A DNA stretch of 64,000 nt from a virus, in IMG/VR virus record IMGVR_UViG_3300017750_000002, positions 6,396-70,395 of that record; one strand, given 5' to 3'. The translations under genes were made by a program, and so were the position numbers. A model generated the notes under the pieces. The model was given only the letters and a program-made list of their open reading frames with translations. It was not told the DNA's origin and ran no database searches. The number at the start of each line of letters is the position of its first letter. Position 1 is the stretch's first letter. Below are positions 7,501 to 64,000 of this stretch, piece after piece.

Positions 7501-7774
7501 CAGTAAGCAGTTAGAAGATAGATTTTCCGAACTTACTGTTGATGTTGATACTGCTCAGACATTACAGAATACTAAAAATAATGAGCAATCAACTGCGCTT
7601 GGTTTCTTAGAAACTGTTAAAATTAAACCAATTAGACTATTAGTTCGCAAACGAGCAACAACGGGTTCAATAACACTTGGATTCACGACAGCATTAAATA
7701 CAGGAACAGCACCACTTGGATTCACAGGTGGGGCCACAATCACCTATACAGACTTAGTGGAGGAAGAATTTTGA
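1535..7774 (+). CDS. Large (2079 aa) tail/baseplate protein
   Basis: S/T/G-rich, beta-rich composition. The C-terminal region resembles tail hub/tip proteins (YNEIIVNG...IKVGDVVNV...YIILEITH...LELELG). Confidence 0.7.
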   Translation: MSLDLFATGSTSAYNFDVPTNPKMTTQSTFSAGTDVLYSAIYTDDSEETVINEIVSSATLQAEYENLSVTKGFNIHCFDTVSSVGKDLSSIASTIDDYYYFVLVHSDNHLKHHFARITEIKTSDALGDSFDFEPKLGNEIAQGTKFKLFKGPAISSKGVAFSAGIKLELQNTLQVARPHFWFVNDSLDKKNQLDHNTKYFARMEKFGDGSSVTMDGAEKVTFVTVTDYAQKVIDYSKYSLNASITDVLRTKDAIATYVSNEGITLATQNDADYDLFAPNAVRDTDDNVTSTGVYVTRGPKRYLHYDYSPTKNNSNINVIDLEVQESIGDKASYVDLQISDPYRILSKKINNYDALRIRQMIHRGDFNDWVSFGATIDSFTSENVSNQSLYAIKTSVDLRDYINAGDEVLINSRVMIALDIFASSIRFRKYSRLETEASFSHSTSLTSIAEDTIIYRRAWNTTDGTLLTGMRMIDGRQDSLSVSLISNEFSQLEATVTSYVSQTGLLTISLFNQGYDTKTALDKMTGQYMIYNEKLNGRITNLKQEKIDGGATVMSINGADKLKELLDPIIEKNALFSKDIVYSTDSPYNKVTALGTNATTVFTNNTLTLSGSTTLVTGDKIFAKTNSGSMVYLGEVSSGGTGTSFSFTTTCKGEVSAKAAYKTSTKYTVFNKALSSNAFVSSATSLYGTANKGLFFESGTTLVNGEEIVSLPPSSINTTNPKSRGYYLSEAKNIKSDNLFQARLDDNASSKSYSTFDTVNTLIDFNILSVQEVEGNQVIEIAPHIPLTLGRVDVNFANTQDTTLTSLGTLTAAVSAGDRYVVTQTTTVLSTAVAARNFHGKPLYIGTAFVGKIVQANYFGGNTNIRIYVDRDLSAADNGSAISTLAGDSTTNETNKLTHELSLLNGAHLHGGKVIAPLHPSRSASSSDDGAYNVLDFPTYFNSGTFALTLSDRAGSQYYRIINMEKGIVSHNTPKKTNYAAFADLNYYESIVAKIPYYASTYKFNPAFYIDSGIVNNITGVDKMDNVARPHTLLQTRGYVPPSGSKFFDTLIHKASGSYEIYLLPPDPYTSTSELKSPYVTQDILKQPDPKVARMFLFVNSDLRPYSSTRKDSLLYSGQTRDISKYNILALTDASVIENSDAKDNTGVNTKTISFKDGNYSSSSILSSEKTLSSLTRFGMMRLTELCFDWAFNQFDPENPPDGNKTLPRFFYPHLNIDNLGTIASISGSTITMSGTITIANGDYILDDEGRYIGTVGSSATVGSDTVITTSDAAYKTKGNAYFSGAGLKVTVADDEFKSHLMGHGSTDTFVAFDKEIHMLRSAVINHAENAGGTSDGYGGSGGSGHANTEEFNTKYGSTLGNASSDATKQHNTYAPIDLHAGTPLGSVSDVASHHPSHLLKIIDGIGTFGAGGAAANNQLYLKSWLPVFLDRFSIEDGSSLAASGMVGAHITGITKFEDNTGTKLSILGYALNEKFANKETNESSSNITYSRTADGVMLAFKPKLKVVTGDNYISTDKAIGASDIYRYGFEETGQYTWLKFVDLTGTYLASTQGVYSEVDGTQGDVAMNATKGLNNVNPAILAYVISHEIDHAYNNSGTGRHIIVTDRALTSDHFRILQPNHTCTYDFSPNKIQLNTLSSAYTKMPYEDKMYSNINSYQLQNAKGDRDLEGDNEGILSMYVAVDIENLSSDTETIVTTSSLDTLLENKDSKYCISDGDSVFSSELTYTNISTYQKFITLSSIKETKGVISVSEITSITVGGESPIDTNSKRAMIGSVVSICQEADDLIEELLEEQDTPFTITKETYPLFVAPNFDGISIFEAINFLLRKKEQTLTQKNETLEIKPKDSSGFYNDLLISDNGDIRIYEYEVLDSTFEEYNEIIVNGKSHKSKKQDLRSVKKVGRKTLKVFERKLTTQEEVDTRAKELLILHKSDNKKLRIKVGHNNISQIKVGDVVNVEVKQENIPRNQYIILEITHLMTGLLELELGKYSKQLEDRFSELTVDVDTAQTLQNTKNNEQSTALGFLETVKIKPIRLLVRKRATTGSITLGFTTALNTGTAPLGFTGGATITYTDLVEEEF

Positions 7775-28738: not shown

Positions 28739-30250
28739 TTATTCCTCCAATAACACAGCAACTTCAGTAGTCAAGAATAATGATGCAATTGACATAGCCG
28801 CATTAAAACTTCCCTTAGTCACCTTTACGGGGTCAATAACCCCTGCTTCAAACAAATCTTCATACTTTTCAGTAAGAGCATTATAACCATAGTGCGGGTT
28901 TCCATTTTGGAATACAGGGAAAGGTTCATCACTATGACCACCATTTCGCAGTAAAACAACTGCAGGTTCAGATAAAGCGTCATAAACAATCTTATGTCCG
29001 GTCTTTTCAATTGCTAGGTTCTTTCTAGCATTTAGCAAACCATATCCACCACCAACAATAATACCTTCAGCAAGAGCGGCCTTAGTTGCATTTAGAGCAT
29101 CATCTAATCGTTCTTTCTTTTCACGCATTTCAAGAGATGAAGATGCACCAATTTGAATTGTAGCAATACCTCCACTCAACCGAGAGATGCGCTTCTTCAA
29201 ACGCTTCTTATCGAAATCATCATCAATTGTATCAAATACTGACTTAAGAGTATTGATTCGTTCATCGGCAGATTTACCTCCAATAATAGTAGTAGATTCC
29301 TTTGTAATGATAATCTTCTCACAACTACCAAGTTCATCAAGAGTCACCAATTCGGGGTCGTCTTTACTTTCATCTGTATGGAGCCTACCACCAACAATAG
29401 AAACAATATCACCAAGTTCATCTAATTGAGCATCACCAAAATTAGGTGCGGTGACAACAGCAACTTCAATTGTCTTTTGTAGAATATTCATAATGATATT
29501 GTTTAATGCAGTACCATCCATTCCTTTGACGAATAGAACCATTGGTCGCTTTTCTACTGCGGCCATTTCCAACATTGGCAATACTTCTGAAAAGTTCTTC
29601 ATAGCCAAATTAGAAGTAAAGATTAGAGGATTAGTGAAGGTTGTTTTCCCATCTTCACCATTAGCCATTAGGTGACTTAAGTACCCTTCATCAATCTCCA
29701 AACCTTTACGAATAACCATATTCGTTCTATGGCTATTTGACTCTTCAACAGTAATAATTCCATCACGACCAACTCCTTCCAAAGCAGTGCTAATTAGACC
29801 ACCAAGATAACTATCATTGTTTGCCGCAATAGTAGCAACATTTAGAATATCAGCATCGCCAATATCACAAGCCATCATTTCAAGATGTTCAATAACAATA
29901 TCTTGTGCTTCCTTCAATTCCTTAGAAAGAGTGTGAAGGTTAGCAACATCAGCGTTATTGATTTGTTCACACAATGCTCTTGCAATAACACAAGCAGTTG
30001 TTGTTCCGTCACCGGAATTATCTTGTGCTTTACTTGCCAAGTTTTGAACCATTTGAACACCCATTTGAACATAAGGGTCTTCATGTGAAACATACTTCGT
30101 AATAGTCACACCGTCGTTAATAATAACAGGTGGATTACCTTGAAGAATTACTGTCTTTGCTTGTGGCCCAAGTGTAGGCAATACAGTATCAGCAACCAAA
30201 TTAATTCCTTGTAATAGTTTTTCTTTTACTTCTTTTCCATGTATAATCAT
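28739..30250 (-). CDS. groEL: Group I chaperonin (GroEL/Cpn60)
   Basis: TLGP, NDGVTI, GDGTTT, IAANND, APNFGD, ERLDDALNAT and GVIDP motifs; no GGM tail. Confidence 0.95.
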   Translation of the reverse strand: MIIHGKEVKEKLLQGINLVADTVLPTLGPQAKTVILQGNPPVIINDGVTITKYVSHEDPYVQMGVQMVQNLASKAQDNSGDGTTTACVIARALCEQINNADVANLHTLSKELKEAQDIVIEHLEMMACDIGDADILNVATIAANNDSYLGGLISTALEGVGRDGIITVEESNSHRTNMVIRKGLEIDEGYLSHLMANGEDGKTTFTNPLIFTSNLAMKNFSEVLPMLEMAAVEKRPMVLFVKGMDGTALNNIIMNILQKTIEVAVVTAPNFGDAQLDELGDIVSIVGGRLHTDESKDDPELVTLDELGSCEKIIITKESTTIIGGKSADERINTLKSVFDTIDDDFDKKRLKKRISRLSGGIATIQIGASSSLEMREKKERLDDALNATKAALAEGIIVGGGYGLLNARKNLAIEKTGHKIVYDALSEPAVVLLRNGGHSDEPFPVFQNGNPHYGYNALTEKYEDLFEAGVIDPVKVTKGSFNAAMSIASLFLTTEVAVLLEE

Positions 30251-46036: not shown

Positions 46037-46111
46037 TGGAACTTATCGGATTTGAACCGATGGTCGCTCGGTTATGAGCCGAGTGCATTAACCATACTAT
46101 GCTAAAGTTCC
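46037..46111 (-). tRNA. tRNA with CAU anticodon (Ile2 or elongator Met)
   Basis: GGAACTT/AAGTTCC acceptor stem, CTCGG-CTCATAA-CCGAG anticodon arm, GTTCAAATC T-loop; CCA not encoded. Confidence 0.93.
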
Positions 46112-46116
46112 TTAAT

Positions 46117-46202
46117 TGGTGTCGAAGGCAGGATTTGAACCTGCGAACCTTTTAGGACAGGAATTTAAGCCCTGCGTGTTTGACCTACTCCACCACTTCG
46201 AC
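46117..46202 (-). tRNA. tRNA-Leu(UAA)
   Basis: GTCGAAG/CTTCGAC acceptor stem plus ACCA, CAGGG-CTTAAAT-TCCTG anticodon arm, long variable arm, GTTCAAATC T-loop. Confidence 0.92.
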
Positions 46203-50638: not shown

Positions 50639-50653
50639 TTGGGTTGCCTCCGG

Positions 50654-50926
50654 TAGTAAGGTAGTCCTATCTTAATAAATGTGGGCATACAAAGAAGCAT
50701 ATGGTTGTGCTTATTAATGTCTATATAGGTCTATGATATGGCTGATATTACCATATGGTTTGATTAGTAATTCAGTAAATCAATTAGGTTTAACTTGCTT
50801 CATTGCTATTGTTTTAGTCTTATTTGACTCTATTGCTATTGTTTCACTTAATATATATAGTATCTATATATCTCTACGATGTTGACTCTATTAGCATTTA
50901 TGCAGTTATACAACCATATGGCTTTG
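50654..50926. promoter_or_regulatory. Promoter module plus further palindromes at the strand switch
   Basis: AGCATATGGT at 50696, ACCATATGGT at 50750 and ACCATATGGC at 50913; AT-rich surroundings. Confidence 0.65.
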
Positions 50927-51102
50927 TCTAAATTTTTTATTTAATTAATTTGTTTATTTAATAACTAATTTAATGCTTATTTAATGATAATAACTAATAA
51001 TAAGGTATTATTAAGCAAATAATCGGCACACAGAACAACATATTAACCCTAAAAACGATACGCTTAATACCACATACCGATACCGAAATACAGGGGAGTC
51101 TT

Positions 51103-51459: not shown

Positions 51460-51669
51460 ATGACTTGGACAGATAAACTTCAAAAAGGAAGTGTGAACGA
51501 AGACAAAGCAACTAAACTAATTAGGTATGCTAGAAATGAACTGAACATTAAAGGGAGAAACCTAGAAAATGTTCTTAGGATTGCATTACAGGAATTAGAA
51601 TTAATGCGTGGCGAAAGTGAAGAAGAAGGCCGAGTTGATTCAGTAGCCGGTTCTAGATTTGAAAGGTGA
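51460..51669 (+). CDS. WxxILK-leader family protein (variant MTWTDKLQK)
   Basis: N-terminal motif. Confidence 0.6.
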   Translation: MTWTDKLQKGSVNEDKATKLIRYARNELNIKGRNLENVLRIALQELELMRGESEEEGRVDSVAGSRFER

Positions 51670-51674
51670 TTATT

Positions 51675-52592
51675 ATGAATTGGTGGGCTATAATTAAAAG
51701 ACCCGATATTTCCATGCCTGAAATTGATAAGTATTTTGAGTGGAATCCAGATTTTTTGGAAAAGACAGTGAAGGATTGGGATAAGGATAATCCTGCTAAG
51801 GTTCTTAGTATTGAACCACCACAAAGTCCTGACCCTGCCGAAAGAATGGAAGACGGTAGTATTCGATTTGCACCAAAAGGCTCAAAGAAGTTTATTCAAG
51901 ATTCATTTAAATTTATCACAGATAGGGCAATTGACAATCAATCTGGCCTTTTGAACATTTTAAGAGAAAAAGGATATAAAGTCACTGTCAAAGATTCTAG
52001 TTGGATTAAGTCACATTACGGTAATAAATTAAACAGAATCTCAGTCCCAGAAGAAGCAAAAGCATATCTTATCACAGTCGGTTCAAAAATAGCGGAGTCA
52101 ATGAGAAAGAAGAACCCCAAAAGAAGTGCTAGATTTCCAGATAAGAAAAGAAGTGCTAAAAATGTTGAACTATGGAATAAAGAACATAAGAAATTTAAAT
52201 TAGATACATTAGAAGGTTTTCAAGATAGAATCCTACGAATAATTGGGAGAACGGAGGGTGATGTTATGAGATATATACAAGAAAATCCTAGTTTTATTAA
52301 AAATAAACACGACCTATATCTAACACAACGGGCCTTCCTCAATGCTCTTTGGGTTTGGCAAAACATAGAAAGGCCGATTTACAAGAAAATCGCAAGGGAA
52401 GACGATGAGCGAAAGAGAATCGACGACGAAAAAAGAGCCGAACTATACGGAAGGATGGAACAAACTGACGACAGACAAAGAGAATTTTCTCGGCGTGGAA
52501 TACCCCGAAACACTAAAAGAAATAAGGACCTACAACCTAGAGGAAAAATAGATGTTAATCAATTTAGGCAAAATAGGAGGAAAAAACAATGA
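51675..52592 (+). CDS. WxxILK-leader family protein, basic
   Basis: MNWWAIIK after a GGTGA RBS. Confidence 0.7.
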   Translation: MNWWAIIKRPDISMPEIDKYFEWNPDFLEKTVKDWDKDNPAKVLSIEPPQSPDPAERMEDGSIRFAPKGSKKFIQDSFKFITDRAIDNQSGLLNILREKGYKVTVKDSSWIKSHYGNKLNRISVPEEAKAYLITVGSKIAESMRKKNPKRSARFPDKKRSAKNVELWNKEHKKFKLDTLEGFQDRILRIIGRTEGDVMRYIQENPSFIKNKHDLYLTQRAFLNALWVWQNIERPIYKKIAREDDERKRIDDEKRAELYGRMEQTDDRQREFSRRGIPRNTKRNKDLQPRGKIDVNQFRQNRRKKQ

Positions 52593-52855
52593 ATTGGGAA
52601 AATATATTAAAGGTTAAAACATTAAGCGATGCTGACGGAAATTACAAGGTTAGTGATGTTTATACTCCTTCCCAGTTTAGTGACATTGTTCATAGTGATT
52701 TAGATGAATACCACAATCAGCGTCGTTATTTTGATATAACTTATGACGGTGGGCATCCTCATGTCGGTGGCGCACATCAGTATTTTAAACCAACTAATCA
52801 GTATATTAGAGATGCCGTTTGTATGCGATGTATGGTAAGGATAAACGCTCAATAA
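52589..52855 (+). CDS. WxxILK-leader family protein
   Basis: MNWENILK. Confidence 0.7.
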   Translation: MNWENILKVKTLSDADGNYKVSDVYTPSQFSDIVHSDLDEYHNQRRYFDITYDGGHPHVGGAHQYFKPTNQYIRDAVCMRCMVRINAQ

Positions 52856-52869
52856 AGGAGGAAACAAAA

Positions 52870-53130
52870 ATGACTTGGCAAAATATACTAAAGGAACTTT
52901 CTCCTAAACAGAAGAAATTAGACCGTAATAAAAACGGTGAAATTGATGGTGAAGATTTTGCCATGCTTAGAGAAGAAAAGGTTTCAAAGGAAATTAAGAC
53001 ATTCGAGAAGGATAAGAACGAGGCTGCATCAGCAGCAAGTTTGTCCGATTTAAAGGAGCAATTAAAAGATGCTCCTAAATACATTAAGACAGCATTAAAC
53101 GAAATCGAAAGATACTTACAAGGTGAATGA
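52870..53130 (+). CDS. WxxILK-leader protein with EF-hand-like loop
   Basis: MTWQNILK; DRNKNGEIDGED. Confidence 0.7.
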   Translation: MTWQNILKELSPKQKKLDRNKNGEIDGEDFAMLREEKVSKEIKTFEKDKNEAASAASLSDLKEQLKDAPKYIKTALNEIERYLQGE

Positions 53131-53131
53131 T

Positions 53132-53371
53132 ATGACTTGGAAAAAAATAATTAAAGAAGAAAGAGAAATAACGCCAGACGACGAAAAACTTGAGGATTTG
53201 AAGGAAGAAGTTAAAGAGTTAGTTGAAGCAATTGTAGAACTTCATGAAAAAAGAGACGATGTTAAGTACTTTTTAGATGTTAAAACTTTAGATGAAATGT
53301 ATCGAGAAGAAGACATTAAACAAGCATTTAAGGGATTAAATCTCATTTTCCGTGCATTAGATTTATACTGA
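53132..53371 (+). CDS. WxxILK-leader family protein, acidic
   Basis: MTWKKIIK. Confidence 0.7.
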   Translation: MTWKKIIKEEREITPDDEKLEDLKEEVKELVEAIVELHEKRDDVKYFLDVKTLDEMYREEDIKQAFKGLNLIFRALDLY

Positions 53372-53380
53372 GTGATTATT

Positions 53381-53815
53381 ATGAGATGGGAAGACATATT
53401 AAAAGTTAAAGACATGAAAACCGGCGAAATGCTAAAGGTTGATATTGCAGAATTTATTGCTGAATTAAAATCTAATTTGGAAGATGCCGCATTAGGATTT
53501 GAAGGATTAGTTGAATCTGGTAGAAAAGCCAGACTTGAAGTTTCAAGGGTTGATGGTAGATTAACAAGACCACGACTTGACAATGATGTTGGTTGTGGTG
53601 TTAAAGTTATTGCAAGAAATCTTGGTGAGGAAAAGGTTAGATATGATATTCAAATTCGATTTGACCCTAGAGATGATACTAAAGGTACTGTTGGGTTAGT
53701 CAATGGTAATGAACTTAAGTTGGGTATGAACGACGAAGTTAATGGAATTGGTGGTTTAACAAACAGAATTAAACAAGCCATTAAGGATTCAATAAATAAA
53801 AGCAGGAGGCTTTGA
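53381..53815 (+). CDS. WxxILK-leader family protein
   Basis: MRWEDILK. Confidence 0.7.
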   Translation: MRWEDILKVKDMKTGEMLKVDIAEFIAELKSNLEDAALGFEGLVESGRKARLEVSRVDGRLTRPRLDNDVGCGVKVIARNLGEEKVRYDIQIRFDPRDDTKGTVGLVNGNELKLGMNDEVNGIGGLTNRIKQAIKDSINKSRRL

Positions 53816-53816
53816 T

Positions 53817-54509
53817 ATGTCTTGGGAAAGCATTCTAAAAGCAGACTTCTCATTTAGAGATGTTATTAAAAATTCAAGAGGCGTATATGCTGGTATCTTT
53901 GACCGTATTCAAATTACACCCGACCTTAGTAAATTAGGCGGTGCAGTTTTAGGAGATGCTCTTAAAGTAGTTGAAGGTATTGATGGTATGACTGTTGCTG
54001 ATAAAAGAAAAGCGGCTGAAGTTGTTTTAATGGAACCTATGCTCATAGGTCTTGATATGATGAATGACCCTTCTATGGAAAAAGACCTTGATAATTTAAT
54101 GGAAATGAGAGTGACTACTATTTCTCAAGAAAAAGATAATAAAGGCGAAGAATCTTTATCTCCTGAACAAATTAATACTATTGAAGAAATTGCTAATAAA
54201 GCAGCACAGAAAGTTCACGATGAAATGAAACAAACAATCAAGGAAACACTTCAAGATAAATTCGGTGAAGAGTTGCTTGGAGCCGAGAAACAAGAAGTAA
54301 TGGAAGGACTTCTTGAAGTTGTTTCAAGTCAAGAATTTGTTGGATATACAGCAGTAGTATTAAATGCTCTAATTATCAAAGTCGCTAAAGAATCTGAAGA
54401 AAAAGCAACAGAATCGGATTTTGAAGTTGAAGTAAATCCAGACCAAGCCTTTTCGGAAGACTTCATGGAAGCAAACAAAATGGATTGGTTCTCACAGATT
54501 AAGCGGTGA
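53817..54509 (+). CDS. WxxILK-leader family protein, acidic, motif at both ends
   Basis: MSWESILK at the N-terminus and MDWFSQIKR at the C-terminus. Confidence 0.7.
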   Translation: MSWESILKADFSFRDVIKNSRGVYAGIFDRIQITPDLSKLGGAVLGDALKVVEGIDGMTVADKRKAAEVVLMEPMLIGLDMMNDPSMEKDLDNLMEMRVTTISQEKDNKGEESLSPEQINTIEEIANKAAQKVHDEMKQTIKETLQDKFGEELLGAEKQEVMEGLLEVVSSQEFVGYTAVVLNALIIKVAKESEEKATESDFEVEVNPDQAFSEDFMEANKMDWFSQIKR

Positions 54510-54514
54510 TTTCC

Positions 54515-55045
54515 GTGTGGTGGGAGATTCTTAAGAATGCTAAAGTTAGTGGCAAAGCCACTGGCAAGGGTTCTAGTTTTGATGCATCTAAAATTAAGAT
54601 TAATATTGATGAACCAGACGACTGTTGCGATGAAGTCTATAATAAACTTGTTAAATTTATAAATCGTAATGATGTTGTTGCTTATGCTTTTCCTAATGTG
54701 TATATGGTAAGTGATTTTACTAGAGAATCTTTAGATGGATTAGGTCACAAGTTTTATTTAAAATACCAACCTCTTCCGCCACTTAACAGGAAAGCAACCT
54801 GTAAAGATGGTGTTTTTTTATACATCCAACTCCGAAGAATTCACCACGATTGTTCGGACACGCTAAAGTCTGACGCTTATCCTTTTTCTTCTGAACAATA
54901 TCGTAATGCCAAAAAATCATTTGAAGAATCAATTAAAGAATGGAAAATGCTTAAAAATACTTTCTCAAGAGAGTTTAACACATTATGGGATGATATTATG
55001 AAGTGTGATGATTTTAAGCGAGAACTTTACCGTACTCCAATTTGA
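54515..55045 (+). CDS. WxxILK-leader protein, tandem paralogue A
   Basis: GTG start, then WWEILKNAKVSGKATGKGSSFDASKIKINID. Confidence 0.7.
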   Translation: MWWEILKNAKVSGKATGKGSSFDASKIKINIDEPDDCCDEVYNKLVKFINRNDVVAYAFPNVYMVSDFTRESLDGLGHKFYLKYQPLPPLNRKATCKDGVFLYIQLRRIHHDCSDTLKSDAYPFSSEQYRNAKKSFEESIKEWKMLKNTFSREFNTLWDDIMKCDDFKRELYRTPI

Positions 55046-55055
55046 AGGTGTTGAT

Positions 55056-55625
55056 ATGAGGTGGTGGAAAATTCTTAAGAATGCCAAAATTAGTGGCAAA
55101 GCAAAAGGTAAAGGTTCTTCCTTCGATGCCTCCAAGATTAAGATTAACATTGATGATAAAGACGATTGCTGTGAAGAATTTTGGAAAACTATTCAAGAAT
55201 TTAAGAATGAACATATAATTGTTTTTAAGGTGATGGGAGATGAGATGTTCGACACTGAAAATTTTAAAAATACTACTTTTGATGGTATAGGCCATATGTA
55301 TTATGAAGGAGATACCTTAGTTATGCCCATGTCTTCAAATAAACCTTGTTCGGATTCACGCTCGCTGTTTAGTCTTATAGAAGATATTTACTTTGATATT
55401 ATCGAATCCGGCTACAAAGAGAGCGATTTTGTATCGGTAGTGGACAAGGAATGGAAAAAATTTGGACATTATGTAAAAGGTAATATGTATCCTTTTTTAC
55501 CGAAACATTATGGACAAGCCACTCTTATACAAGTTAATGAGTGGCCCAAACTTGTAGGTAAATTTCTTGAAGAGTATAATGATTTGTGGCGGAAGTACGA
55601 AGCCTGTGAAGAATTAAAGGGATGA
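55056..55625 (+). CDS. WxxILK-leader protein, tandem paralogue B
   Basis: MRWWKILKNAKISGKAKGKGSSFDASKIKINID. Confidence 0.7.
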   Translation: MRWWKILKNAKISGKAKGKGSSFDASKIKINIDDKDDCCEEFWKTIQEFKNEHIIVFKVMGDEMFDTENFKNTTFDGIGHMYYEGDTLVMPMSSNKPCSDSRSLFSLIEDIYFDIIESGYKESDFVSVVDKEWKKFGHYVKGNMYPFLPKHYGQATLIQVNEWPKLVGKFLEEYNDLWRKYEACEELKG

Positions 55626-55629
55626 TACT

Positions 55630-55797
55630 ATGAAATGGTGGAATATAATTAAAGGCTCATGTTGCGATGCTTGCGGCAACTTGAATAAGGAGTCCGGCGG
55701 TGTAGCGTTTGGGGGTCATGGCAACGACCCATCTAAATTCAACATAAAATACGGAGGTGACAAGAATGACGAAAAAGACGAGGAAATCAACAGTTGA
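55630..55797 (+). CDS. 55-aa WxxILK-leader protein (not in ORF track)
   Basis: Manual translation: MKWWNIIKGSCCDACGNLNK...EEINS. Confidence 0.6.
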   Translation: MKWWNIIKGSCCDACGNLNKESGGVAFGGHGNDPSKFNIKYGGDKNDEKDEEINS

Positions 55798-56884
55798 AGT
55801 AAATGGCAACACTATTGAAGCACCGCAATATAAATTTAAAGCGGAATATGCAGCATGGAGAAGAAAGGTTGATAGTATTTCTTCTGAGAAAATTGCCAGC
55901 ACAGGAAGTAAATTTGCAGATGCAAATAGAGCAAAATACCCTGCAACATTATACGGGCAATTAAGTCACCATGTCAATAAGTATCTTCGGGATAATTCTA
56001 GCAATACTGGTGACGATGGTATATTTGAAGTGTTGGATGCAATCAATGAATTACTCAAAGATAAAGAAATTTTCTTTACTCCCGAATTAAAAATATTAAT
56101 AAAGTTTAGAGATAACATTAAGGGTATAGAAGATGATGAAAAATTAAATCCTAGAAATACTCTTTTTACTCGCCCTACTCGGTGGAAAAGAGGCGAGAAA
56201 TTAAAGAATAGTAAAACAAGGGCCAAATATAAAATTGATGTTTTGAATGATAAGCCTCAAAGTATTTATGGACATTATCGAGATAATTACTTTGAAGATA
56301 AGTATGGTGAGCCGGAAAAGAAAGGTTGGTGGAGTACCGAGAAGAATACTGCAAATCCACCATTAGCACAAGCCATTTATGGTAAAGGTGATTTAGGAAT
56401 TACTAAGGGGCTATTAACCATTCTTGAAGAGGCTATTAAAGAAATATCGGAAAAGCCAATACCAAATATAGGATTAAGAGTTCAAAGAAATGCTGGTTCT
56501 TTAGCGGCAATACCATCTGTTAGAAAGCAAGTTTTTGCACTACTAAAAAGGAATGATTTATTTGTAGGTGGAAAACCTAAACTAAGACAAATGAGTTCTA
56601 TATTACAAAATATGGAATTTGTTGTTGGTGAAAAATCATTTGGTGGTCGAGCATCGCCTAAAAAGATTATTACTTTCGTTGGTAAATTAGATAACATTCC
56701 AAGTCCCATTGAAACATTTACATTGAAGACTTTCGGCCCTACTGCTATGGCTTCTTTAATCATGGCAGTTATTGGAAAGAAGACCTATAAACTTAAGAAC
56801 GGTAATTACTTAGATATTAAAGGTAGGACAGAAGTTCCTAAAGAAGAAGTAAAGAAGTCTTGGATGGAACACCTTTGGAGGTAA
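55766..56884 (+). CDS. Basic hypothetical protein with C-terminal W motif
   Basis: Long ORF ending KKSWMEHLWR. Confidence 0.7.
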   Translation: MTKKTRKSTVEVNGNTIEAPQYKFKAEYAAWRRKVDSISSEKIASTGSKFADANRAKYPATLYGQLSHHVNKYLRDNSSNTGDDGIFEVLDAINELLKDKEIFFTPELKILIKFRDNIKGIEDDEKLNPRNTLFTRPTRWKRGEKLKNSKTRAKYKIDVLNDKPQSIYGHYRDNYFEDKYGEPEKKGWWSTEKNTANPPLAQAIYGKGDLGITKGLLTILEEAIKEISEKPIPNIGLRVQRNAGSLAAIPSVRKQVFALLKRNDLFVGGKPKLRQMSSILQNMEFVVGEKSFGGRASPKKIITFVGKLDNIPSPIETFTLKTFGPTAMASLIMAVIGKKTYKLKNGNYLDIKGRTEVPKEEVKKSWMEHLWR

Positions 56885-56888
56885 GAAT

Positions 56889-57548
56889 ATGACTATAACC
56901 CGTAAGCGATGTGCCTTTTGTCAGCACGAACAAAGAGAAGAACTTGAAGCCTCTATCGAACAAGGTATGTCAAGTTGTGATGATTTAGATTCAAGAAACA
57001 ATTGGAGAAGTGGCACTGCGGCCCAACATCAAAGAAATCATATGGGAGAATACACAAACAGTAGTAATCCAAAATGCAAGTTATGTGTGGACCCAATGCG
57101 AAAACATTACGAGGAAGCCCTTTCTAACGGTTCTATCACAAGTGACGCTATTTCTCAGGTGTTAGACATCTCGAAACAGCAGGTGCAACGCCACATGAAG
57201 CACCACTTGGCCCCATTGGTACAGCAATCTGCGGCCACTATGATAGCGAAAAAGGAAGTAAATGAGATTGATTTGCTGAGTGCGAATGTTCAGCGATTAG
57301 ATACCAAACTCAACGAACTATTCCTTAATACAGAATTAGAACCAAGAGAGATTGATAGTCTAACTAAACTCGCAAAAGAAGTTCGAGAGTCATTAAAGTA
57401 TCTACTTGAGTTCAAAGGCAAACTTGTTCACAAGAGACAAGATACAATTATTGTCGCACAAATGCAGGTTGTTCAAGAAGTGTTAGCACAGAACAATCCT
57501 GAGATTTGGCTTGACATTAAGAAAAAGATGCAGGAGAGATTACAATGA
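56889..57548 (+). CDS. Duplicated Zn/HTH protein, possibly terminase small subunit
   Basis: Two CxxC...HxxxH HTH repeats followed by a coiled coil. Confidence 0.5.
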   Translation: MTITRKRCAFCQHEQREELEASIEQGMSSCDDLDSRNNWRSGTAAQHQRNHMGEYTNSSNPKCKLCVDPMRKHYEEALSNGSITSDAISQVLDISKQQVQRHMKHHLAPLVQQSAATMIAKKEVNEIDLLSANVQRLDTKLNELFLNTELEPREIDSLTKLAKEVRESLKYLLEFKGKLVHKRQDTIIVAQMQVVQEVLAQNNPEIWLDIKKKMQERLQ

Positions 57549-57739
57549 GTTGGAAAGATATAATTAAAGAAGAAATGCCTAGACCGCCAAAAAGCAGACT
57601 AAATACACCTATGACTTGTGAAAACGGCCATAGTTTTACTTCGGGTGAAGTGAAATATACGAAAAAACTAGGTGCGCCTAGTAATTATACGGTTTCTAAA
57701 AAATGCCCTACATGTGGAAAAAAAGCAAAATTTGTTTAA
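57545..57739 (+). CDS. WxxILK-leader Zn-ribbon protein
   Basis: MSWKDIIK; CENGH...CPTCG. Confidence 0.65.
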   Translation: MSWKDIIKEEMPRPPKSRLNTPMTCENGHSFTSGEVKYTKKLGAPSNYTVSKKCPTCGKKAKFV

Positions 57740-57752
57740 GTGAGAGATTACA

Positions 57753-58073
57753 ATGAATTGGATGAGCATTCTCAAGAATAAAGATGAAATGAAAAATGAG
57801 TTTTTCAAAGTAATTAGAAAAGAATATGAAAACATGGGTTGGGCTAAAGCAGATGAGTTTGGGGAACCTACGAACTATTCACAAAAAGGCTATGCTGATT
57901 TTTTAATAGAAGATTTTGAAAGTCAATTAAAAGATGGGGCAGATATAGTTGATATAATCATTAGCGAAATCAAAGAAAATGAAATCGTTATGAATAGTGT
58001 TAAGAAAGATGACCCTGAAAGAGCAAAGTATATTCAAAATTTCATTAATGAATTAAAAGCAGTAATGGCTTAA
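57753..58073 (+). CDS. WxxILK-leader family protein
   Basis: MNWMSILK. Confidence 0.7.
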   Translation: MNWMSILKNKDEMKNEFFKVIRKEYENMGWAKADEFGEPTNYSQKGYADFLIEDFESQLKDGADIVDIIISEIKENEIVMNSVKKDDPERAKYIQNFINELKAVMA

Positions 58074-58106
58074 ATGCAGGAAAGATTACAATAGGTCGGT
58101 TTTTCT

Positions 58107-60092
58107 ATGCAGGTACAGAAAGAAAACTTTATGGATTTTCTAAGTGCTGATGCATCTACTGATGTTTTGATAAATAATAAAGAACTTAAAGGAATATCGA
58201 GAACAGGTGGAAGAGATTGGATTTTGAAGTTCATGGATGATTTTGAATATATTAATAAATTTAATAAATTCTTTGCAAAAATTGATACTCCAGAATATAA
58301 AGTCCATGAGGATGCACTCGATAGAATCCTTAAACCTGCTGGCATTGACTACGATAAAAGAAAAGAAATCAAATTAAGAATATTTTCTAATTTTCAAAGG
58401 CTTAAAGATAGTCTTTCTCAAAAAAAGCGTAAGTTCTATGGTAAGTCGGAAAAAGAAATTATGGATATTGCGATTAAAGAAAACGATAAAGATACTTTAT
58501 TATTAATTTATAATAAACTTGTTAAAAATCACAAAGAGAGATGGCTAAAGGGAGATGAAAACTCTTTGAAATTTTTACGAAATAGTATAAAAAAAGATAT
58601 AATTAGCCCTTCAAAACTCTATTCTGCATTCGTTAGAAACCTTCCAGAAACAAAACCATCAGCCGAAGAATTCTTAAATGCCGAGAAGCCAATTTATTCT
58701 TTTTCTCTTGTTGAACTTAGTGCCGTAGTTAATAAGCCCAAAAAAGTAGATGGTTGGGAACTTGGCAAAAAAAACTTTCCGGTTGGAGATTTACCAACAT
58801 GGAGAAAAGTTGTTGATAAAACAGATAGGGAATACATTCCAGCAACAACTGGACCAATGGTTTCCAAGTTGCAAGAATTGTATTCTGCAATAGGAAACCC
58901 ACCTGTCGAAGATACAAGGTTTAACCGACAAGAATCCCTTTTGAATACAATACTTCTTCCTAAAAGCAAAGCATCTGCGAAGTTTTCTACGGAAGAGTTA
59001 GAAGGAATCTTGGAAATTAAATTACAAAGAATTGACTCCTTAACTGATAATCAAGTTCGCCTCTTCATTGAATCGTTAGATAATGTTAGGGGAGATAAAT
59101 CTAAAAAAGCGCCAAATCAAATCTTTTCTAGATTTAGAATAAATAACCAAAAGCCAAGAGATTATCTATATTATTCTAAAAACAGAAACATTAGAATGGT
59201 TCCATTCATTAAAGAAATATTGTCCTCTCCAACCGGAGGAAGGCTATTTGAAATCGCTACAAAGAATATGCCAACAGTAAAAGCACAAAGTTTAGAAGCA
59301 TTTACAGTGGATTACAAAAGAAAAAATCCAGATGCTGGCGATGATTTACAATCAGAATATGCTAAGTATTTAAGAAAGAAATCTATCTCTTCCGATTCTG
59401 TTGAACTTTTAAGAAAAGAAGTAGAAGATGATGAAGACGAACTGGAAGAATTAGAAAATCTTTTATTGAATTTGGAAAGAGTTGGAGATGTTTATTTTGC
59501 TGAAGATAAAGAGGGAATAGAAGCAATAGATGAAATTTATCAGCAAATTGAAATTCAATTAGAGTTTGAAAGTATTAGCCGAGAAGAAGCAGGTGAGGCG
59601 AAAAGAAAATTAGAAAATAGCAGAACTCTTTCATTTGCTATTCTTAAGACTATTACAGATTTACCAGAAACAGACGGTAAAAAACAACCTTTAAGTTCAG
59701 TTTTGAAAGAAACAGGGCCATTGAAGGAATATTCTGGTAGTTCTTCTTTTGGTGATATTGGTATTTCCGAGGCTCTAATCATTTCACATAGGTTAGTTCA
59801 AAGAATAATGCAAGTAAATTTAACTTCTAGGGTTGAAAAAATTGACTCAATCATTGAAAAGGAAGGAGAATCTTTATCCCTAACAGACCCCACCTTGAAG
59901 CAAGCAGTTGATGGTCTTGCAGATGCCATCAACAAAGGCTTAAACGACTTAAATAATAAATTTAGAGAAGAAATCATTTCTCGATTGAATGCTTTGATAG
60001 AAAATCCATCTGAAACACCTGAAGTATTTCAAGGGTATGTCTATAATAAGTTGATTAAAGCAGGAATATTCGTAAAGGAGGAACAAGAATGA
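58107..60092 (+). CDS. Large charged hypothetical protein
   Basis: 661-aa ORF, Lys/Glu-rich. Confidence 0.75.
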   Translation: MQVQKENFMDFLSADASTDVLINNKELKGISRTGGRDWILKFMDDFEYINKFNKFFAKIDTPEYKVHEDALDRILKPAGIDYDKRKEIKLRIFSNFQRLKDSLSQKKRKFYGKSEKEIMDIAIKENDKDTLLLIYNKLVKNHKERWLKGDENSLKFLRNSIKKDIISPSKLYSAFVRNLPETKPSAEEFLNAEKPIYSFSLVELSAVVNKPKKVDGWELGKKNFPVGDLPTWRKVVDKTDREYIPATTGPMVSKLQELYSAIGNPPVEDTRFNRQESLLNTILLPKSKASAKFSTEELEGILEIKLQRIDSLTDNQVRLFIESLDNVRGDKSKKAPNQIFSRFRINNQKPRDYLYYSKNRNIRMVPFIKEILSSPTGGRLFEIATKNMPTVKAQSLEAFTVDYKRKNPDAGDDLQSEYAKYLRKKSISSDSVELLRKEVEDDEDELEELENLLLNLERVGDVYFAEDKEGIEAIDEIYQQIEIQLEFESISREEAGEAKRKLENSRTLSFAILKTITDLPETDGKKQPLSSVLKETGPLKEYSGSSSFGDIGISEALIISHRLVQRIMQVNLTSRVEKIDSIIEKEGESLSLTDPTLKQAVDGLADAINKGLNDLNNKFREEIISRLNALIENPSETPEVFQGYVYNKLIKAGIFVKEEQE

Positions 60093-62617
60093 GTTATCCC
60101 CTATTAAATACATATTTACCTGACTTTGAGCAGGTTTTGATGGAAGAAATCAATCAAAGTAATTGGAAAAGTGCTAAAACAGCCCAAAATCCAAAGAAAG
60201 CAAGGGGCCGTTTTGTTAGAAAACTAAAAACTGCGGCAAAAACAAGAGATATTCTAGGTTTAATTAAAGAAATTAAGGAATTTTACGATAATAAAGGGAT
60301 AAAAGGTAAAGCAAGTGGCCTTGATGCTCAAGTAAATGAGCGTTTTAGGCCTCTTATACGGGGTATGACTCATATTTTCTATAACGGTCAAAAAATACAG
60401 TTAGAAGACCTCACAGATGAAGATTTTGAAGAAAGAGATGTGACTATTTCCCAAAAAAAGACAAAAAGAGGTTCTTTTGCAGTGACTTCTGACGATATTA
60501 ATGAATATGAGAAGAAATTTGATAGATTACTTACTAAAGGAGCAGGTGTTTTAGCCACAGAAAATGTCGTTGGAGGGCAAAAATACCTAAAAAAGAACAT
60601 GGAAAGGCTATTCAAGAGGCTTAAAGAGCAAGTTCAACTAACAAAAAGGGGCAAAATAAAGGGCAAATTGGCAGTTATTGGTGATATAGACTTCGAAATT
60701 AGCAGTGTTTTTAATGCAAAAAGCATGAAAAATTACGAAAATAGGAATAACGCATACAACTATTGGAAGTCTGTAAGCAAAAAATTCGATAAATTACGCA
60801 CCGAATTTAATAAATTTAAGAAATCTATGGCGGATTCTAAGGATAAAAGGAAAGAAACTGCTGATTTACTGGCATTTGATATAGATAGCATCAACTATAT
60901 TGTTGAATATGATAGAAAAAGCATAAGTGTCAAACAACTTGATGTTGCAGCGCATGATGCTTTTTCTGCTTTCCTTAATTTACTTGGCGGCATAATGGAA
61001 GTAAATGATATAGATAATGTTAGGCAGATAACAGAAGAGATTTTCTTAGATGAAGGTCAACAAACAAGACAAGTAGATATTAGTGAAGATACTGCAACTG
61101 ATACTTTACCGACTGAAATTGTAGATGCAAGGAAATTAATTAATGAAGAACTTCCTCTCGACCCGTTAGGTATCATATACTTTAGAAAGGAACTGAATGA
61201 GATTGGTTTAGTAAATACTAATCTTGTTGGTTTAACTGAACAACTCAGAAAATACTATGAGGATTTGACAGAAGAAAACGAATATCCTAATTTAGATGTG
61301 GAAGATGCAAATGCCTTATTTGACAATTTCTTAGATAAGTTGGATAATGTTAGAGATACAGGTGATGAGTTATTCTTGCCTATATTTATGGCTAATGACG
61401 AAGCATTAACTGTTGAGTATAGGGAACTTAGGAATAAAGCGGCTGAAATAGAATCAAATATAAAAAAGTTCATGGACCTTTTCTTAAATTTCCTACAAAG
61501 AGATAGGGCGATATTAACTAATCAAATTAATTTAGATATGTTAGGTCTTGGTAGTGGAAAAGGTGGAGAAGGTACTTTTCCAAGAAGCGGCGGAAGAACA
61601 TTTCCGTGGTTTAACTATAAAAACTTCGTTGCTGGCTCAAGAGGGACACAACGATACAATATGAAAGAAGCAAAGAATCTAAATGAAGATATTACAACGC
61701 AAGTTAATAATATTTGTAAAATCATAGCAGATTGTTTCTTAGGTCCACAATTTTCAAAGTATCGGGCTGGAATAAAATTACCATTCGAGGGTGATTTTAC
61801 TTTGCGTTTGATTGCAGCAACAAGACCAATAGGTGAAAAGTATAGGGCTGTTTCGATAGTAAATGAAAGGCTTCTTTCGAGAGATACTGCTTTTATGACG
61901 GAAGACGATTTTGATGATTTAATAGCATATCTTAAAGAATTGGCTGGTGCAGATAATATTAGGGAATATAAAAAGTTGTATGAAGTTTCCAAAAAATTTG
62001 CTGATGCTCTCGATAACATTTTTGATGATGAGCAAGTAGAAAATTCTATAAATGACGATGTTGCCTCTATATTAGGTTCAATATACCGATTGCTCAATGA
62101 TGAAGAAAAAGCCCAAGCAATAGATGATGGAGAGCATAAATTTCCTAAAGATTCCAACAAAACAGTTTTAGATATTTACAATGAGAGAGATACGGATGAA
62201 CCGCAGGACATATATGCAGTTCAAGCATTAGTTGAAGCAATTAGAAGTAGAGGAACAAATTTAACATATAGAACAAGTGGTGGAGAATCAGGAGATAACT
62301 TCAAAGATGATAAAATTCAGCAATTGTTGCAATTATTAGATAGAGTTGCTAAGAGTGTAGTGCAAAGAAAATTACTTGAAGCCCACGATACATTACGAAT
62401 ACTTAAATCACAACCAGTATATCACTCAATGAAGAATGAAAATAATTTTGAAGACATGGACAGTATTATCAGTAAGATGGAAAACGAATATAACATTGAC
62501 ATGAATGCAAATGAAATTGTTAGTATTGTTAAAGCAGTTGATTCTTTTGAAGGTATTGCTAGAGAATACGGAATTGATGCAGAACATGTATATATCTTAA
62601 AGGCGAACTTTAGGTGA
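60089..62617 (+). CDS. Large charged hypothetical protein with possible C-terminal HTH
   Basis: 842-aa ORF; C-terminal SFEGIAREYGIDAEHVYILK. Confidence 0.75.
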   Translation: MSYPLLNTYLPDFEQVLMEEINQSNWKSAKTAQNPKKARGRFVRKLKTAAKTRDILGLIKEIKEFYDNKGIKGKASGLDAQVNERFRPLIRGMTHIFYNGQKIQLEDLTDEDFEERDVTISQKKTKRGSFAVTSDDINEYEKKFDRLLTKGAGVLATENVVGGQKYLKKNMERLFKRLKEQVQLTKRGKIKGKLAVIGDIDFEISSVFNAKSMKNYENRNNAYNYWKSVSKKFDKLRTEFNKFKKSMADSKDKRKETADLLAFDIDSINYIVEYDRKSISVKQLDVAAHDAFSAFLNLLGGIMEVNDIDNVRQITEEIFLDEGQQTRQVDISEDTATDTLPTEIVDARKLINEELPLDPLGIIYFRKELNEIGLVNTNLVGLTEQLRKYYEDLTEENEYPNLDVEDANALFDNFLDKLDNVRDTGDELFLPIFMANDEALTVEYRELRNKAAEIESNIKKFMDLFLNFLQRDRAILTNQINLDMLGLGSGKGGEGTFPRSGGRTFPWFNYKNFVAGSRGTQRYNMKEAKNLNEDITTQVNNICKIIADCFLGPQFSKYRAGIKLPFEGDFTLRLIAATRPIGEKYRAVSIVNERLLSRDTAFMTEDDFDDLIAYLKELAGADNIREYKKLYEVSKKFADALDNIFDDEQVENSINDDVASILGSIYRLLNDEEKAQAIDDGEHKFPKDSNKTVLDIYNERDTDEPQDIYAVQALVEAIRSRGTNLTYRTSGGESGDNFKDDKIQQLLQLLDRVAKSVVQRKLLEAHDTLRILKSQPVYHSMKNENNFEDMDSIISKMENEYNIDMNANEIVSIVKAVDSFEGIAREYGIDAEHVYILKANFR

Positions 62618-62621
62618 TTTT

Positions 62622-63398
62622 ATGAAGAAGCAAGGTCCGAGGGTTTTAGAACAAGTATTTTCGTATCAAGGTATGCAGAACCAATGGAACAGCGATAACC
62701 CCGAAGAAGAGTATGTTAGGAATATTCCGTCTTGGTATGAATTAGATAAATGGTTAATTCGTGTCGATAGTAACAATAAAGTAATTGCAACAATTGGTTG
62801 GAAGGAGTACGATACATATCTTGTTTTAGGTGGCCTTAAGTCTGTACAAAAGAAAAAAATACCTAGTGGAAATGCAGATGCCTTATATGCTGCTAGAGAT
62901 GCTAGATTACCAAACAAACCAAAAGTTATGGGATTCAGACCTAAAGGTAATATAGAAACTTGGATAGACAGATATAGAGGAAAAGGATTCACAGTTCAAA
63001 AAGATGTGGATGAAAATAACAAAGTGATAAACTTAGTTCCTGAAAATGTTCAAGAAGAATTTGAATCAAGATATAAAGGAAATTGGGCAGTTAAGAAGTG
63101 GTTTGATATGTTAAGAAATTCCGATGCTGTTCTAAAAGCAAGGTCTAGGGCGGATATGATATGGATTAAACTAGGAACTTCTATTATGCAAGATAAAATA
63201 CCATTCAAGAATCCTGAGAAATTTGTGAGATATTCTAACTTAGGAAGAGATAACAAAAGAGCGATAAGGTTTTATTTGGAAACAGGATTAGCCAAACCTA
63301 AAAGAAGAAATAAATTCTATCAAAATATACAAGAAGAAATGCTTCGTTCAAGTAATGTTCGATATGATGTTGAAGACCAAAGCCGAGGTGACAAGTAA
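62622..63398 (+). CDS. Possible GNAT-fold protein with internal W motif
   Basis: VIATIGW...LVLGGLKS...GNADALY...YRGKGF resembles GNAT; followed by KKWFDMLR...VLKA and a second domain. Confidence 0.5.
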   Translation: MKKQGPRVLEQVFSYQGMQNQWNSDNPEEEYVRNIPSWYELDKWLIRVDSNNKVIATIGWKEYDTYLVLGGLKSVQKKKIPSGNADALYAARDARLPNKPKVMGFRPKGNIETWIDRYRGKGFTVQKDVDENNKVINLVPENVQEEFESRYKGNWAVKKWFDMLRNSDAVLKARSRADMIWIKLGTSIMQDKIPFKNPEKFVRYSNLGRDNKRAIRFYLETGLAKPKRRNKFYQNIQEEMLRSSNVRYDVEDQSRGDK

Positions 63399-63802
63399 TG
63401 ACAGAAATATGGTTTGAAGTATTGAAAAAGAAAAAAGCAGGTAAGGCTACTGCTACTCATAATAGTAAAGGTGAGAAAAAAGACCAATGCGCTTTAAATG
63501 CTGATGATTCATATGGATTAAAAGGTTCTGCGTATAAATCGGGATATATGACTCGTTGCCGTCAAGGAAAACTAAAGAAAGGCGGAGATAATTTCAAAAG
63601 AGAAAAAGAATCGGGATTACACGGTTGGTTTTCAAGAAGAGGCGGAGATGGACAGAAAGGTTGGGTTTCTTGCCAATCATGTGAAGATGATAAGAAAGGA
63701 ACAAAACCTTGTGGTCGTAAAGATGCTTCTAAAGGAACTAAACAAAGATGTAGGCCGACTTGTGGTGCTTGTAAAACTTATAAAAGGAGGAAAGGTGCAT
63801 GA
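63398..63802 (+). CDS. WxxILK-leader Cys/Lys-rich protein
   Basis: IWFEVLK; C...SAYKSG...C and GLHGWF...GWV.C...PCGR...CRPT modules. Confidence 0.65.
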   Translation: MTEIWFEVLKKKKAGKATATHNSKGEKKDQCALNADDSYGLKGSAYKSGYMTRCRQGKLKKGGDNFKREKESGLHGWFSRRGGDGQKGWVSCQSCEDDKKGTKPCGRKDASKGTKQRCRPTCGACKTYKRRKGA

Positions 63803-64000
63803 ATTGGGAAGATATATTAAAAATGGACATTGAAGCAAAAATACTTGCTGAAATTAAGAAAGAAGGCGGTGCATTGGGTATGAAGAACCTAAAACAGTTT
63901 GGAGAAGAATCTGAAATTAAAGCAGCACTATCTAATTTACAAAAGAAAGGAAAAATATTTATGCACCGAGATGGAGACATTTATACTCATAAGCCTAAAA
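63799..64000 (+). CDS. WxxILK-leader protein, 3'-truncated, winged-helix-like
   Basis: Manual translation: MNWEDILKMDIEAKILAEIKKEGG... Confidence 0.65.
   Translation, partial: MNWEDILKMDIEAKILAEIKKEGGALGMKNLKQFGEESEIKAALSNLQKKGKIFMHRDGDIYTHKPK

Follow-up and report, generated by a model that had tools for sequence, protein, structure and literature searches.

Why should a run of otherwise unrelated small proteins in one virus begin with the same eight residues? The question is raised by the distal arm of a 64,000-nucleotide stretch of viral DNA (hereafter the window; bases 6396-70395 of the 70,395-base linear IMG/VR virus record IMGVR_UViG_3300017750_000002, estimated to be 75% complete), in which an earlier inspection of the letters alone, the sequence-only reading, had noticed about 14 proteins with a common N-terminal leader and proposed that this leader addresses diverse cargo into the virus head. 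Judged by its genes, the window is the end of a magrovirus-like contig, that is, of an archaeal tailed virus. Magroviruses, which infect marine group II archaea and have yet to be cultured, belong to the most abundant archaeal viruses in surface seawater; for the majority of their genes, no role has been assigned. Here, we report that this octapeptide tag exists, is under selection at the peptide level, is carried by hundreds of unrelated protein bodies, lies within the head-gene array, and resembles the tail of the protease-scaffold protein.

A six-frame regular-expression scan of the window for the strict pattern M-x-W-x-x-[ILVM]-[ILVM]-[KR] returned 11 tag matches, all on the plus strand (starting at 51675, 52589, 52870, 53132, 53381, 53817, 55056, 55630, 57545, 57753, and 63799), and all 11 fit the narrower form M-x-W-x-x-[IV]-[IL]-K. 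Three looser tags are found at 51460 (MTWTDKLQK), at 54506 (M-I-S-V-W-W-E-I-L-K, from a GTG start), and at 63398 (MTEIWFEVLK), which bears out the count of about 14 leaders, spread from 51460 to 63799. The only strict match on the minus strand (26220) straddles a stop codon and hence starts no protein, so that the motif is indeed essentially absent from the minus-strand arm, as had been noticed. Every tagged start is preceded, 5-9 nucleotides upstream, by a GGTGA/GGAGG-like Shine-Dalgarno site, and the genes from 51460 to the contig end are tightly packed, with gaps of at most about 35 nucleotides. Beyond the tag, the proteins have little in common: when the first 10 residues of the 14 window proteins were removed, BLASTP at E<=0.01 linked only those starting at 54506 and 55056, the single paralogue pair that the sequence-only reading had set apart from otherwise unrelated bodies. 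Neither Pfam nor PHROGs gave a significant family for the window's tagged proteins; among 10 window proteins compared, PHROGs returned only two weak matches, to families of unknown function, and Pfam no internal-protein family. The related copies described away from the N-terminus are all present as well, two of them C-terminal (MDWFSQIKR, ending at 54509, and KSWMEHLWR, ending at 56884) and one internal (KKWFDMLR at 63099, within a 258-aa protein).

A larger set of 93 strictly tagged genes was collected with a simple greedy caller of open reading frames (ORFs) from nine sequences (G000-G004 and L106-L109), among which G001-G004 are four complete relatives of ~96 kb with about 70% identity to the window's contig in the family B DNA polymerase (PolB). 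Tagged genes make up 10 of 108 called genes in G000 (where the caller dropped the 55-aa ORF at 55630), 17 of 143 in G001, 10 of 139 in G002, 13 of 134 in G003, and 15 of 145 in G004, and there are 6-9 in each of the four partial loci L106-L109. The 93 proteins fall into 58 BLAST clusters, and their logo reads M1, [STN]2, W3, x, [DNS]5, I6, [LI]7, K8, with no conservation past residue 8. Ile6 is encoded by ATA, ATT, or ATC, position 7 by all six Leu codons as well as by Ile and Val codons, and Lys8 by AAA or AAG, while the exchanges at tag positions are conservative (I/V/L and K/R). Varied codons combined with such exchanges point to selection on the peptide, as had been argued from the window alone, although codon choice is biased: ATA occurs 50 times against 24 expected, AAA 78 times against 63 expected, and codon 2 is AGT, AAT, or ACT in 65 of the 93 tags.

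This A-rich bias, together with the Shine-Dalgarno-like site before all tags, is what might be expected of an element that acts in translation initiation or N-terminal stability, giving high expression or protection of small proteins without any role in assembly. We consider this very improbable, because the invariant Trp codon and the conservative exchanges point to the peptide, because the peptide is also conserved at C-termini and in protease tails, where it has no part in translation start, and because genes of the replication arm are entirely without the tag. The A-N-T form of codon 2 would fit a helix-capping Ser, Asn, or Thr as well as a tag spread by copying. Some tagged genes also have bases just upstream of the ATG in common (GTGATTATT before the genes at 51675 and 53381; GAGAGATTACA before those at 57545 and 57753), and these common bases, taken with codon 2, suggest that DNA comprising the tag and its ribosome site has been copied between genes. 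Such copying would also suit a tag that has no function of its own and only survives from the expansion of a single gene family, the bodies being no longer recognizable as related. However, the tagged bodies range from 45 to 766 aa and carry unrelated Pfam domains, and the persistence of eight near-invariant residues while the rest was lost indicates selection on the tag itself, which makes a mere remnant extremely improbable.

To how many proteins does the rule extend? When viral contigs were scanned for the tag pattern preceded by a Shine-Dalgarno site, at least 120 stretches (1.09 Mb) were obtained. Among the matches listed for these loci, at least 321 tagged ORFs of at least 45 aa fall into at least 196 clusters; 244 of the 321 begin no more than 10 codons past an upstream stop, and 89 of 120 loci carry at least one tagged ORF (exactly one in 21). 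Chance matches of the pattern account for 11 of the first 80 loci, which are without any tagged ORF. In G001-G004, the tag pattern at the DNA level has 3-8 exact matches per genome, confined to one strand in each, and none when read backwards, which excludes chance. Pfam searches with 91 of the 93 proteins and 150 of the 196 cluster representatives recognized pentapeptide repeats, EF-hand, zinc ribbons, HTH_3, CCA-adding enzyme, PAP2, DUF6321, DUF5754, and DUF6782, each in one or two proteins. The CCA-adding enzyme (transfer RNA [tRNA] nucleotidyltransferase) is a 416-aa protein tagged MGWMQILK, encoded at L203:7976-9223 on the minus strand, in a genuine locus with three tagged ORFs. A Phage_portal match among the tagged ORFs (L221) was rejected as a chance match, since it comes from a single-motif locus in which the motif lies 67 codons inside the ORF and long ORFs occur on both strands. 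No tagged protein has several membrane-like segments, and residues 9-24 are more often charged (38.6%) than in untagged ORFs (26.9%, some of these ORFs being spurious) and also less hydrophobic. The tagged 741- and 766-aa proteins of G003 and G002 are not related by BLAST to untagged proteins of 661 and 695 aa, and therefore no gain or loss of the tag within a family can be demonstrated there.

The genomic position of the tagged genes ties them to the head module. This module (terminase, portal, protease, and capsid protein) is absent from the window's contig and must therefore lie past base 64000; in G001-G004, tagged genes are always on the head-gene strand. The array of G001 starts at a divergent intergenic region with ~13 tagged genes and a 374-aa homologue of a window 375-aa gene, and continues with a 218-aa homologue of a window 219-aa gene, two tagged genes, and genes for 695, 884, and 257 aa, of which the 884-aa gene, upstream of the large terminase (TerL), is homologous to a window 842-aa protein. 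TerL itself, an HNH-like gene, seven tagged genes, the portal, and a 1109-aa protein starting MSWKAVL follow, before the array ends with a 121-aa split-tag protein (MTW...ILK), an 82-aa protein, a second ligase, the S78 prohead protease, the capsid protein, and tail genes. Tagged genes thus flank TerL and sit directly upstream of the portal in G001, and its replication arm holds none. The sequence-only reading had named an equal frequency in early genes as a result that would speak against it; genes of the replication arm are without the tag both in the six-frame scan of the window and among the called ORFs of the relatives.

Two side observations concern this array. In the split tag, M-T-W-D-Y-Y-...-I-L-K, 5-7 residues are inserted between Trp and I-L-K; it is found in the 121-aa protein (L086:11943-12308, minus strand, in G001) and also in some members of a 230-aa family (alignment A1). 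The second ligase is an 841-aa protein with a second ATP-dependent DNA ligase domain, encoded between portal and protease (L086:8709-11234, minus strand, in G001), and a second ligase in the head module has been remarked on for magroviruses (PMC5434244).

The same module contains the other proteins in which the motif recurs. In G001, the 413-aa protease consists of an S78 domain with a long, acidic, helical extension that ends ...S-M-D-W-S-D-I-H-K-M-V-N-N-I, and the 82-aa protein ends ...S-M-D-W-S-D-I-H-K-M-M.... The motif M-[DE]-W-S-[DE]-I-H-K ends the protease-scaffold fusion in all five relatives with a head module (G001-G004 and G007, a relative nearer to the window in the tag arm, whose capsid protein is 87% identical to that of G001), and it ends a protein of ~80 aa in G001-G004 too, so that the protease-scaffold fusion and a separate small protein have a common C-terminal tail of ~20 residues. 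Endings of this kind, such as MSWDEIRK, MDWDDIHK, MSWSDIHK, and MSWDDIHK, are also found in other loci, on ORFs of two size classes (~75-81 aa and ~396-416 aa). Tails and tag have M1, W3, an acidic or polar position 5, I6, and K8 in common. A motif profile scanned over the complete genome and related viruses, scaffold included, had been proposed as a check; built from the N-terminal tags only, the profile placed the tails of both the protease and the ~80-aa protein among the best 2-5 of ~29,500 positions away from the N-terminus in each complete genome, and several of the other top matches probably mark true starts of genes that use TTG or another start codon. When only matches that score 7 bits or more and lie no further than 13 residues from a C-terminal end are counted, G001-G004 have 4, 2, 1, and 4, against means of 0.05, 0.04, 0.01, and 0.07 in 100 shuffles.

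The motif also ends proteins of other families. Exact copies of the form K/P-S-W-x-D-I-L-K/R terminate proteins of 165, 172, 188, 308, 484, and 1345 aa in other loci. Among 23 local homologues of the 375-aa protein, 19 end in K-S-W-x-E-x-L-W-R, K-S-W-Q-D-I-L-R-W, or similar when the ends are read by eye (the strict regular expression flags only five of the 23), and two of the family (L201 and L176) additionally start with an N-terminal tag. In the 230-aa family, the N-terminal tag and a C-terminal M-D-W-F-x-x-I-K are both retained down to 42% identity, with M1, W3, K8, and W224 invariant in 18 aligned sequences. In the AlphaFold2 (AF2) model of the 230-aa protein, which is all-helical and of low confidence (predicted local distance difference test [pLDDT] 60.7), residues 1-10 and 223-230 fall below 50, and in that of the 375-aa protein (pLDDT 84.8; predicted template modeling score 0.78) a final helix, 367-374, follows a long coil; tag ends are thus predicted to be flexible or detached from the fold. 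The 375-aa family, at the center of the tag arm, may represent a new fold, as its matches in BFVD are limited to three viral proteins without a name (E 1e-16 to 1e-17) and PDB has none at E<=0.001. On the evidence of these sequences, the same peptide seems to serve as an N- or a C-terminal end.

What, then, might the peptide do? Many unrelated small soluble proteins whose genes lie in the head-gene array carry a peptide like that of the scaffold, and the simplest explanation is that they dock where the scaffold does and become enclosed in the procapsid. On balance, we favor the interpretation that the tag is a terminal docking peptide for the procapsid, which would load small soluble proteins into the head and perhaps be clipped after Lys. 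The octapeptide M-[STN]-W-x-[DNS]-I-[LI]-K would accordingly be a portable docking tag for protein termini. It probably forms a short amphipathic helix, one face of which presents W3, I6, and L7, and it would attach to the inner side of the procapsid during assembly, at the docking site of the protease-scaffold C-terminal tail. A large, fast-changing set of small soluble proteins would thereby be enclosed in the head, and the prohead protease may next clip the tag after Lys. That the tag binds the capsid protein and is cleaved, and that tagged proteins are encapsidated and delivered into the host, are the steps that we infer. Of the earlier idea of a head-addressing N-terminal leader, the portable tag on unrelated soluble proteins, its place on the head-gene strand and in the head-gene array, and its likeness to the protease-scaffold tail all speak for the address; the restriction to N-termini is too narrow, since the same peptide also stands at C-terminal ends. 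A general address system, in which the octapeptide at either end leads proteins through the scaffold-tail docking site to an HK97-fold head and on into the host with the DNA, is a possible extension that we put forward tentatively.

The cleavage step calls for separate consideration. The tags (I-L-K), the tails (I-H-K), and the capsid protein (L-L-K) all end in hydrophobic-x-Lys; near the capsid protein N-terminus, L30-K31 is invariant within x-L-L-K-Q-A-G in 29 sequences and is a possible matching cleavage site, which makes cleavage after Lys a reasonable guess at most. The common ending might also mean that the tag is mainly a prohead protease cleavage site ([IL]-x-K, then the cut) and no address at all, with head entry by other means or processing in the cytoplasm. 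We regard this as quite improbable: a cleavage site has no need of an invariant Trp five residues upstream or of an exact terminal position, and removal of eight residues would be purposeless unless they had acted first. In any case, such a site would overlap the docking interpretation rather than exclude it. When the G001 capsid protein (A3) was modeled, without controls, in complex with the 64-aa tagged zinc-ribbon protein of the window (A4), the result (score 0.00, mark 0.32) was neutral on binding.

The docking partner could also be something other than the capsid. If the tag bound the portal, a virus-encoded GroEL-type chaperonin, or a host hub, with the tails sharing that partner, no encapsidation would be involved. 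The virus does encode a GroEL-type chaperonin, a short peptide with a hydrophobic face could fit many grooves, tagged enzymes and regulators would act in the cytoplasm, and use at either terminus is also known for hub-binding motifs. Nevertheless, head-assembly proteins are the sole other bearers of the motif, the tagged genes lie among head genes, and only 12 of 26 magroviruses encode a chaperonin according to PMC5434244; we therefore think another partner unlikely, though not far-fetched. Several points weigh against procapsid docking itself: (i) packaging, cleavage, and injection are all inferred; (ii) the first tagged block directly follows a divergent AT-rich regulatory region, where early genes often lie; (iii) some tagged proteins, such as the CCA-adding enzyme and the HTH_3 regulator, need no packaging to work; (iv) a single head would have to accommodate a large load, 10-17 cargo species per genome with sizes up to 766 aa; (v) the codon bias (ATA, AAA, and A-N-T at codon 2) shows that some translation-start or common-descent signal is mixed in; (vi) position 7 is Leu or Ile in the tags but His, Arg, Asp, Glu, or Gly in the protease and scaffold-like tails, which are therefore similar, not identical, to the tag; and (vii) the protease link comes from relatives (about 70% PolB identity), because the window's contig has no head module.

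Procapsid docking would have parallels in three known systems. In T4, diverse internal proteins, a variable set with anti-defense roles, enter the prohead core by means of a short N-terminal peptide, the capsid-targeting sequence (CTS), which the prohead protease cuts off (PMC3012670, PMC7411985). As with the CTS of IPI-III and Alt, a short N-terminal peptide is found here on unrelated proteins of an HK97-fold tailed virus; however, the host is archaeal, 10-17 genes per genome are tagged rather than about 4, the tag is also found at C-termini and resembles the protease-scaffold tail, and the protease is S78 (HK97-like) and not of the T4 type. No relation to T4 internal-protein families was found by Pfam or PHROGs for the 10 window proteins, or by Pfam for the sets of 91 and 150 tagged proteins. 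The second system, the encapsulins, consists of cellular compartments with one or few cargo types. Encapsulin cargo-loading peptides are terminal (usually C-, rarely N-), comprise about 10 residues joined to the cargo by a flexible linker, dock in a luminal pocket of the HK97-fold shell, and are used for recognizing new cargo by sequence (PMC8229669). The likeness to the tag, one of description, is a terminal consensus peptide set off by a flexible segment, as seen in the logo that ends at residue 8, the AF2 models, the charged residues 9-24, and the Pro-rich linker of the 64-aa protein; the difference is that the shell would here be a true virus capsid, which also has to take 96 kb of DNA, and that the cargo would comprise dozens of families.

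In tailed phages and herpesviruses, protease and scaffold have a common C-terminal end by which both are held to the capsid protein; examples of such capsid-binding tails are those of the herpesvirus protease/scaffold pair, lambda C/Nu3, and HK97 gp4. The relatives of the window match this arrangement in having a protease-scaffold fusion and a separate small protein with the same C-terminal tail. We know of no report that the tail in herpesvirus, lambda, or HK97 is also a tag on many unrelated non-structural proteins. For SPN3US, a C-terminal propeptide of the gp245 protease has been proposed to target the protease into the prohead (PMC7411985). Among terminal peptides that target capsids or shells, the tag is thus unusual in that it belongs to viruses of archaea, is carried by so many proteins, occurs at either terminus, and mimics a scaffold tail. 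A full-text search with the motif strings found no paper; term searches found no mention of an N-terminal motif in magrovirus papers, whose supplementary gene tables may annotate these ORFs, no mention of a scaffold in one magrovirus paper, and no paper that combines the terms magrovirus and metaproteom.

The tag arm of the window, all on the plus strand, opens with the 69-aa gene of the degenerate tag MTWTDKLQK (51460..51669; ATG start), in which W3 is kept and positions 6-8 have diverged. It is followed by a 305-aa tagged gene for a basic protein of no known family (MNWWAIIK; 51675..52592) and by tagged genes of 88 aa (MNWENILK; 52589..52855), 86 aa (MTWQNILK; 52870..53130), whose body belongs to a nine-member BLAST cluster that also contains that of the 63799 gene, 79 aa (MTWKKIIK, acidic; 53132..53371), and 144 aa (MRWEDILK; 53381..53815), which has homologues in L106, L108, and L109. 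The 230-aa gene (53817..54509), with MSWESILK at its N-terminus and the tag-like MDWFSQIKR at its C-terminus, has 97 homologues with both ends conserved. Next come the two paralogues (31% identity, E 8e-29), a 179-aa gene with a GTG start and the tag displaced by two residues (54506..55045) and a 189-aa gene tagged MRWWKILK (55056..55625), and the Cys-rich 55-aa gene tagged MKWWNIIK (55630..55797). The conserved 375-aa core gene (55757..56884) has no N-terminal tag here and ends in the variant KKSWMEHLWR, and the 219-aa gene after it (56889..57548) is untagged, Cys-rich or helix-turn-helix (HTH)-like, with HTH matches below threshold only, and conserved in G001 (218 aa). The 64-aa gene (57545..57739) combines the tag MSWKDIIK with a Pro-rich linker and a zinc-ribbon-like body, and an acidic 106-aa protein is tagged MNWMSILK (57753..58073). 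Three larger untagged genes of 661, 842, and 258 aa (58107..63398) belong to the same array, which continues with a very basic 134-aa gene bearing the displaced tag MTEIWFEVLK (63398..63802) and a gene tagged MNWEDILK that runs off the contig end (63799..64000).

For the 375-aa and 842-aa proteins, sequence matches in PDB occurred only at E>=0.11, searches of the ESM Atlas gave no usable match, and structure and database searches did not reveal a function; Foldseek against PDB gave only E>=1.5, and the few encapsulin shells on top, at a template modeling score of 0.07, are not evidence. In close-relative scans of viral contigs, the 842-aa protein was found in none and the 230-aa family in only four. 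Contigs of marine RNA libraries (two runs) match parts of the tag arm, but DNA carry-over is possible and contigs cannot show transcription, timing, or strand; contigs of the oligo-dT run X2 are identical to the arm at 52424-52506, 53225-53375, 53404-53554, and 58526-58728.

The remainder of the contig provides the setting. Tail tube and tape-measure genes lie at the start of the record, and the minus arm at ~10-50 kb consists of replication genes, including PolB, an ATP-dependent ligase, a Cpn60-family chaperonin, a class II ribonucleotide reductase, and a UvrD-like helicase. Group B magroviruses are described as having a GroEL-type chaperonin, a ribonucleotide reductase, two tRNAs, and a GC content of about 35% (Philosof et al., PMC5434244), and the window's gene set, with these features, fits that group as far as the description there goes. 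PolB has 517 relatives among viral contigs; in the GenBank phage collection it matches only haloarchaeal viruses and cyanophages, at about 24% identity, and the tag arm had no match there in DNA and protein searches. The chaperonin (28739-30250, minus strand) is of the bacterial GroEL type, the best of its matches among 19 genome loci being to bacterial GroELs (36-39% identity); a bacterial-type GroEL thus occurs in a virus with archaeal-kind replication genes, in agreement with the GroEL-bearing magrovirus groups described in PMC5434244. Adjacent tRNA-Met (CAT) and tRNA-Leu (TAA) genes lie at 46037-46202 (minus strand), where the local GC is 0.41-0.43 against about 0.35. An AT-rich stretch at 50640-51100, which separates the divergent arms, probably serves in regulation or as an origin; it includes short TTATTTAAT-like units repeated in tandem (50931-50986), and a contig of run X1 passes over 137 of its bases (50766-50904). 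In the tail module, a 2079-aa ORF (1535-7774, plus strand) has no Pfam or PHROGs family, and its counterpart in G001 is 2340 aa long.

For the biology of magroviruses, a single sequence rule would give 10-15% of their genes a testable role, that of candidate virion cargo. If the docking proposal is true, loading by mimicry of the scaffold would be a mechanism not described for archaeal viruses. If the tentative general address system holds as well, more than a tenth of the genes, with hundreds of fast-turning-over families across the group, would form an arsenal of injected effectors that greatly exceeds the T4 internal proteins in size and modularity. In that case, the octapeptide would also be a ready-made tool for loading foreign proteins, at either terminus, into HK97-type shells, and the question of what magroviruses inject into their hosts would become approachable.

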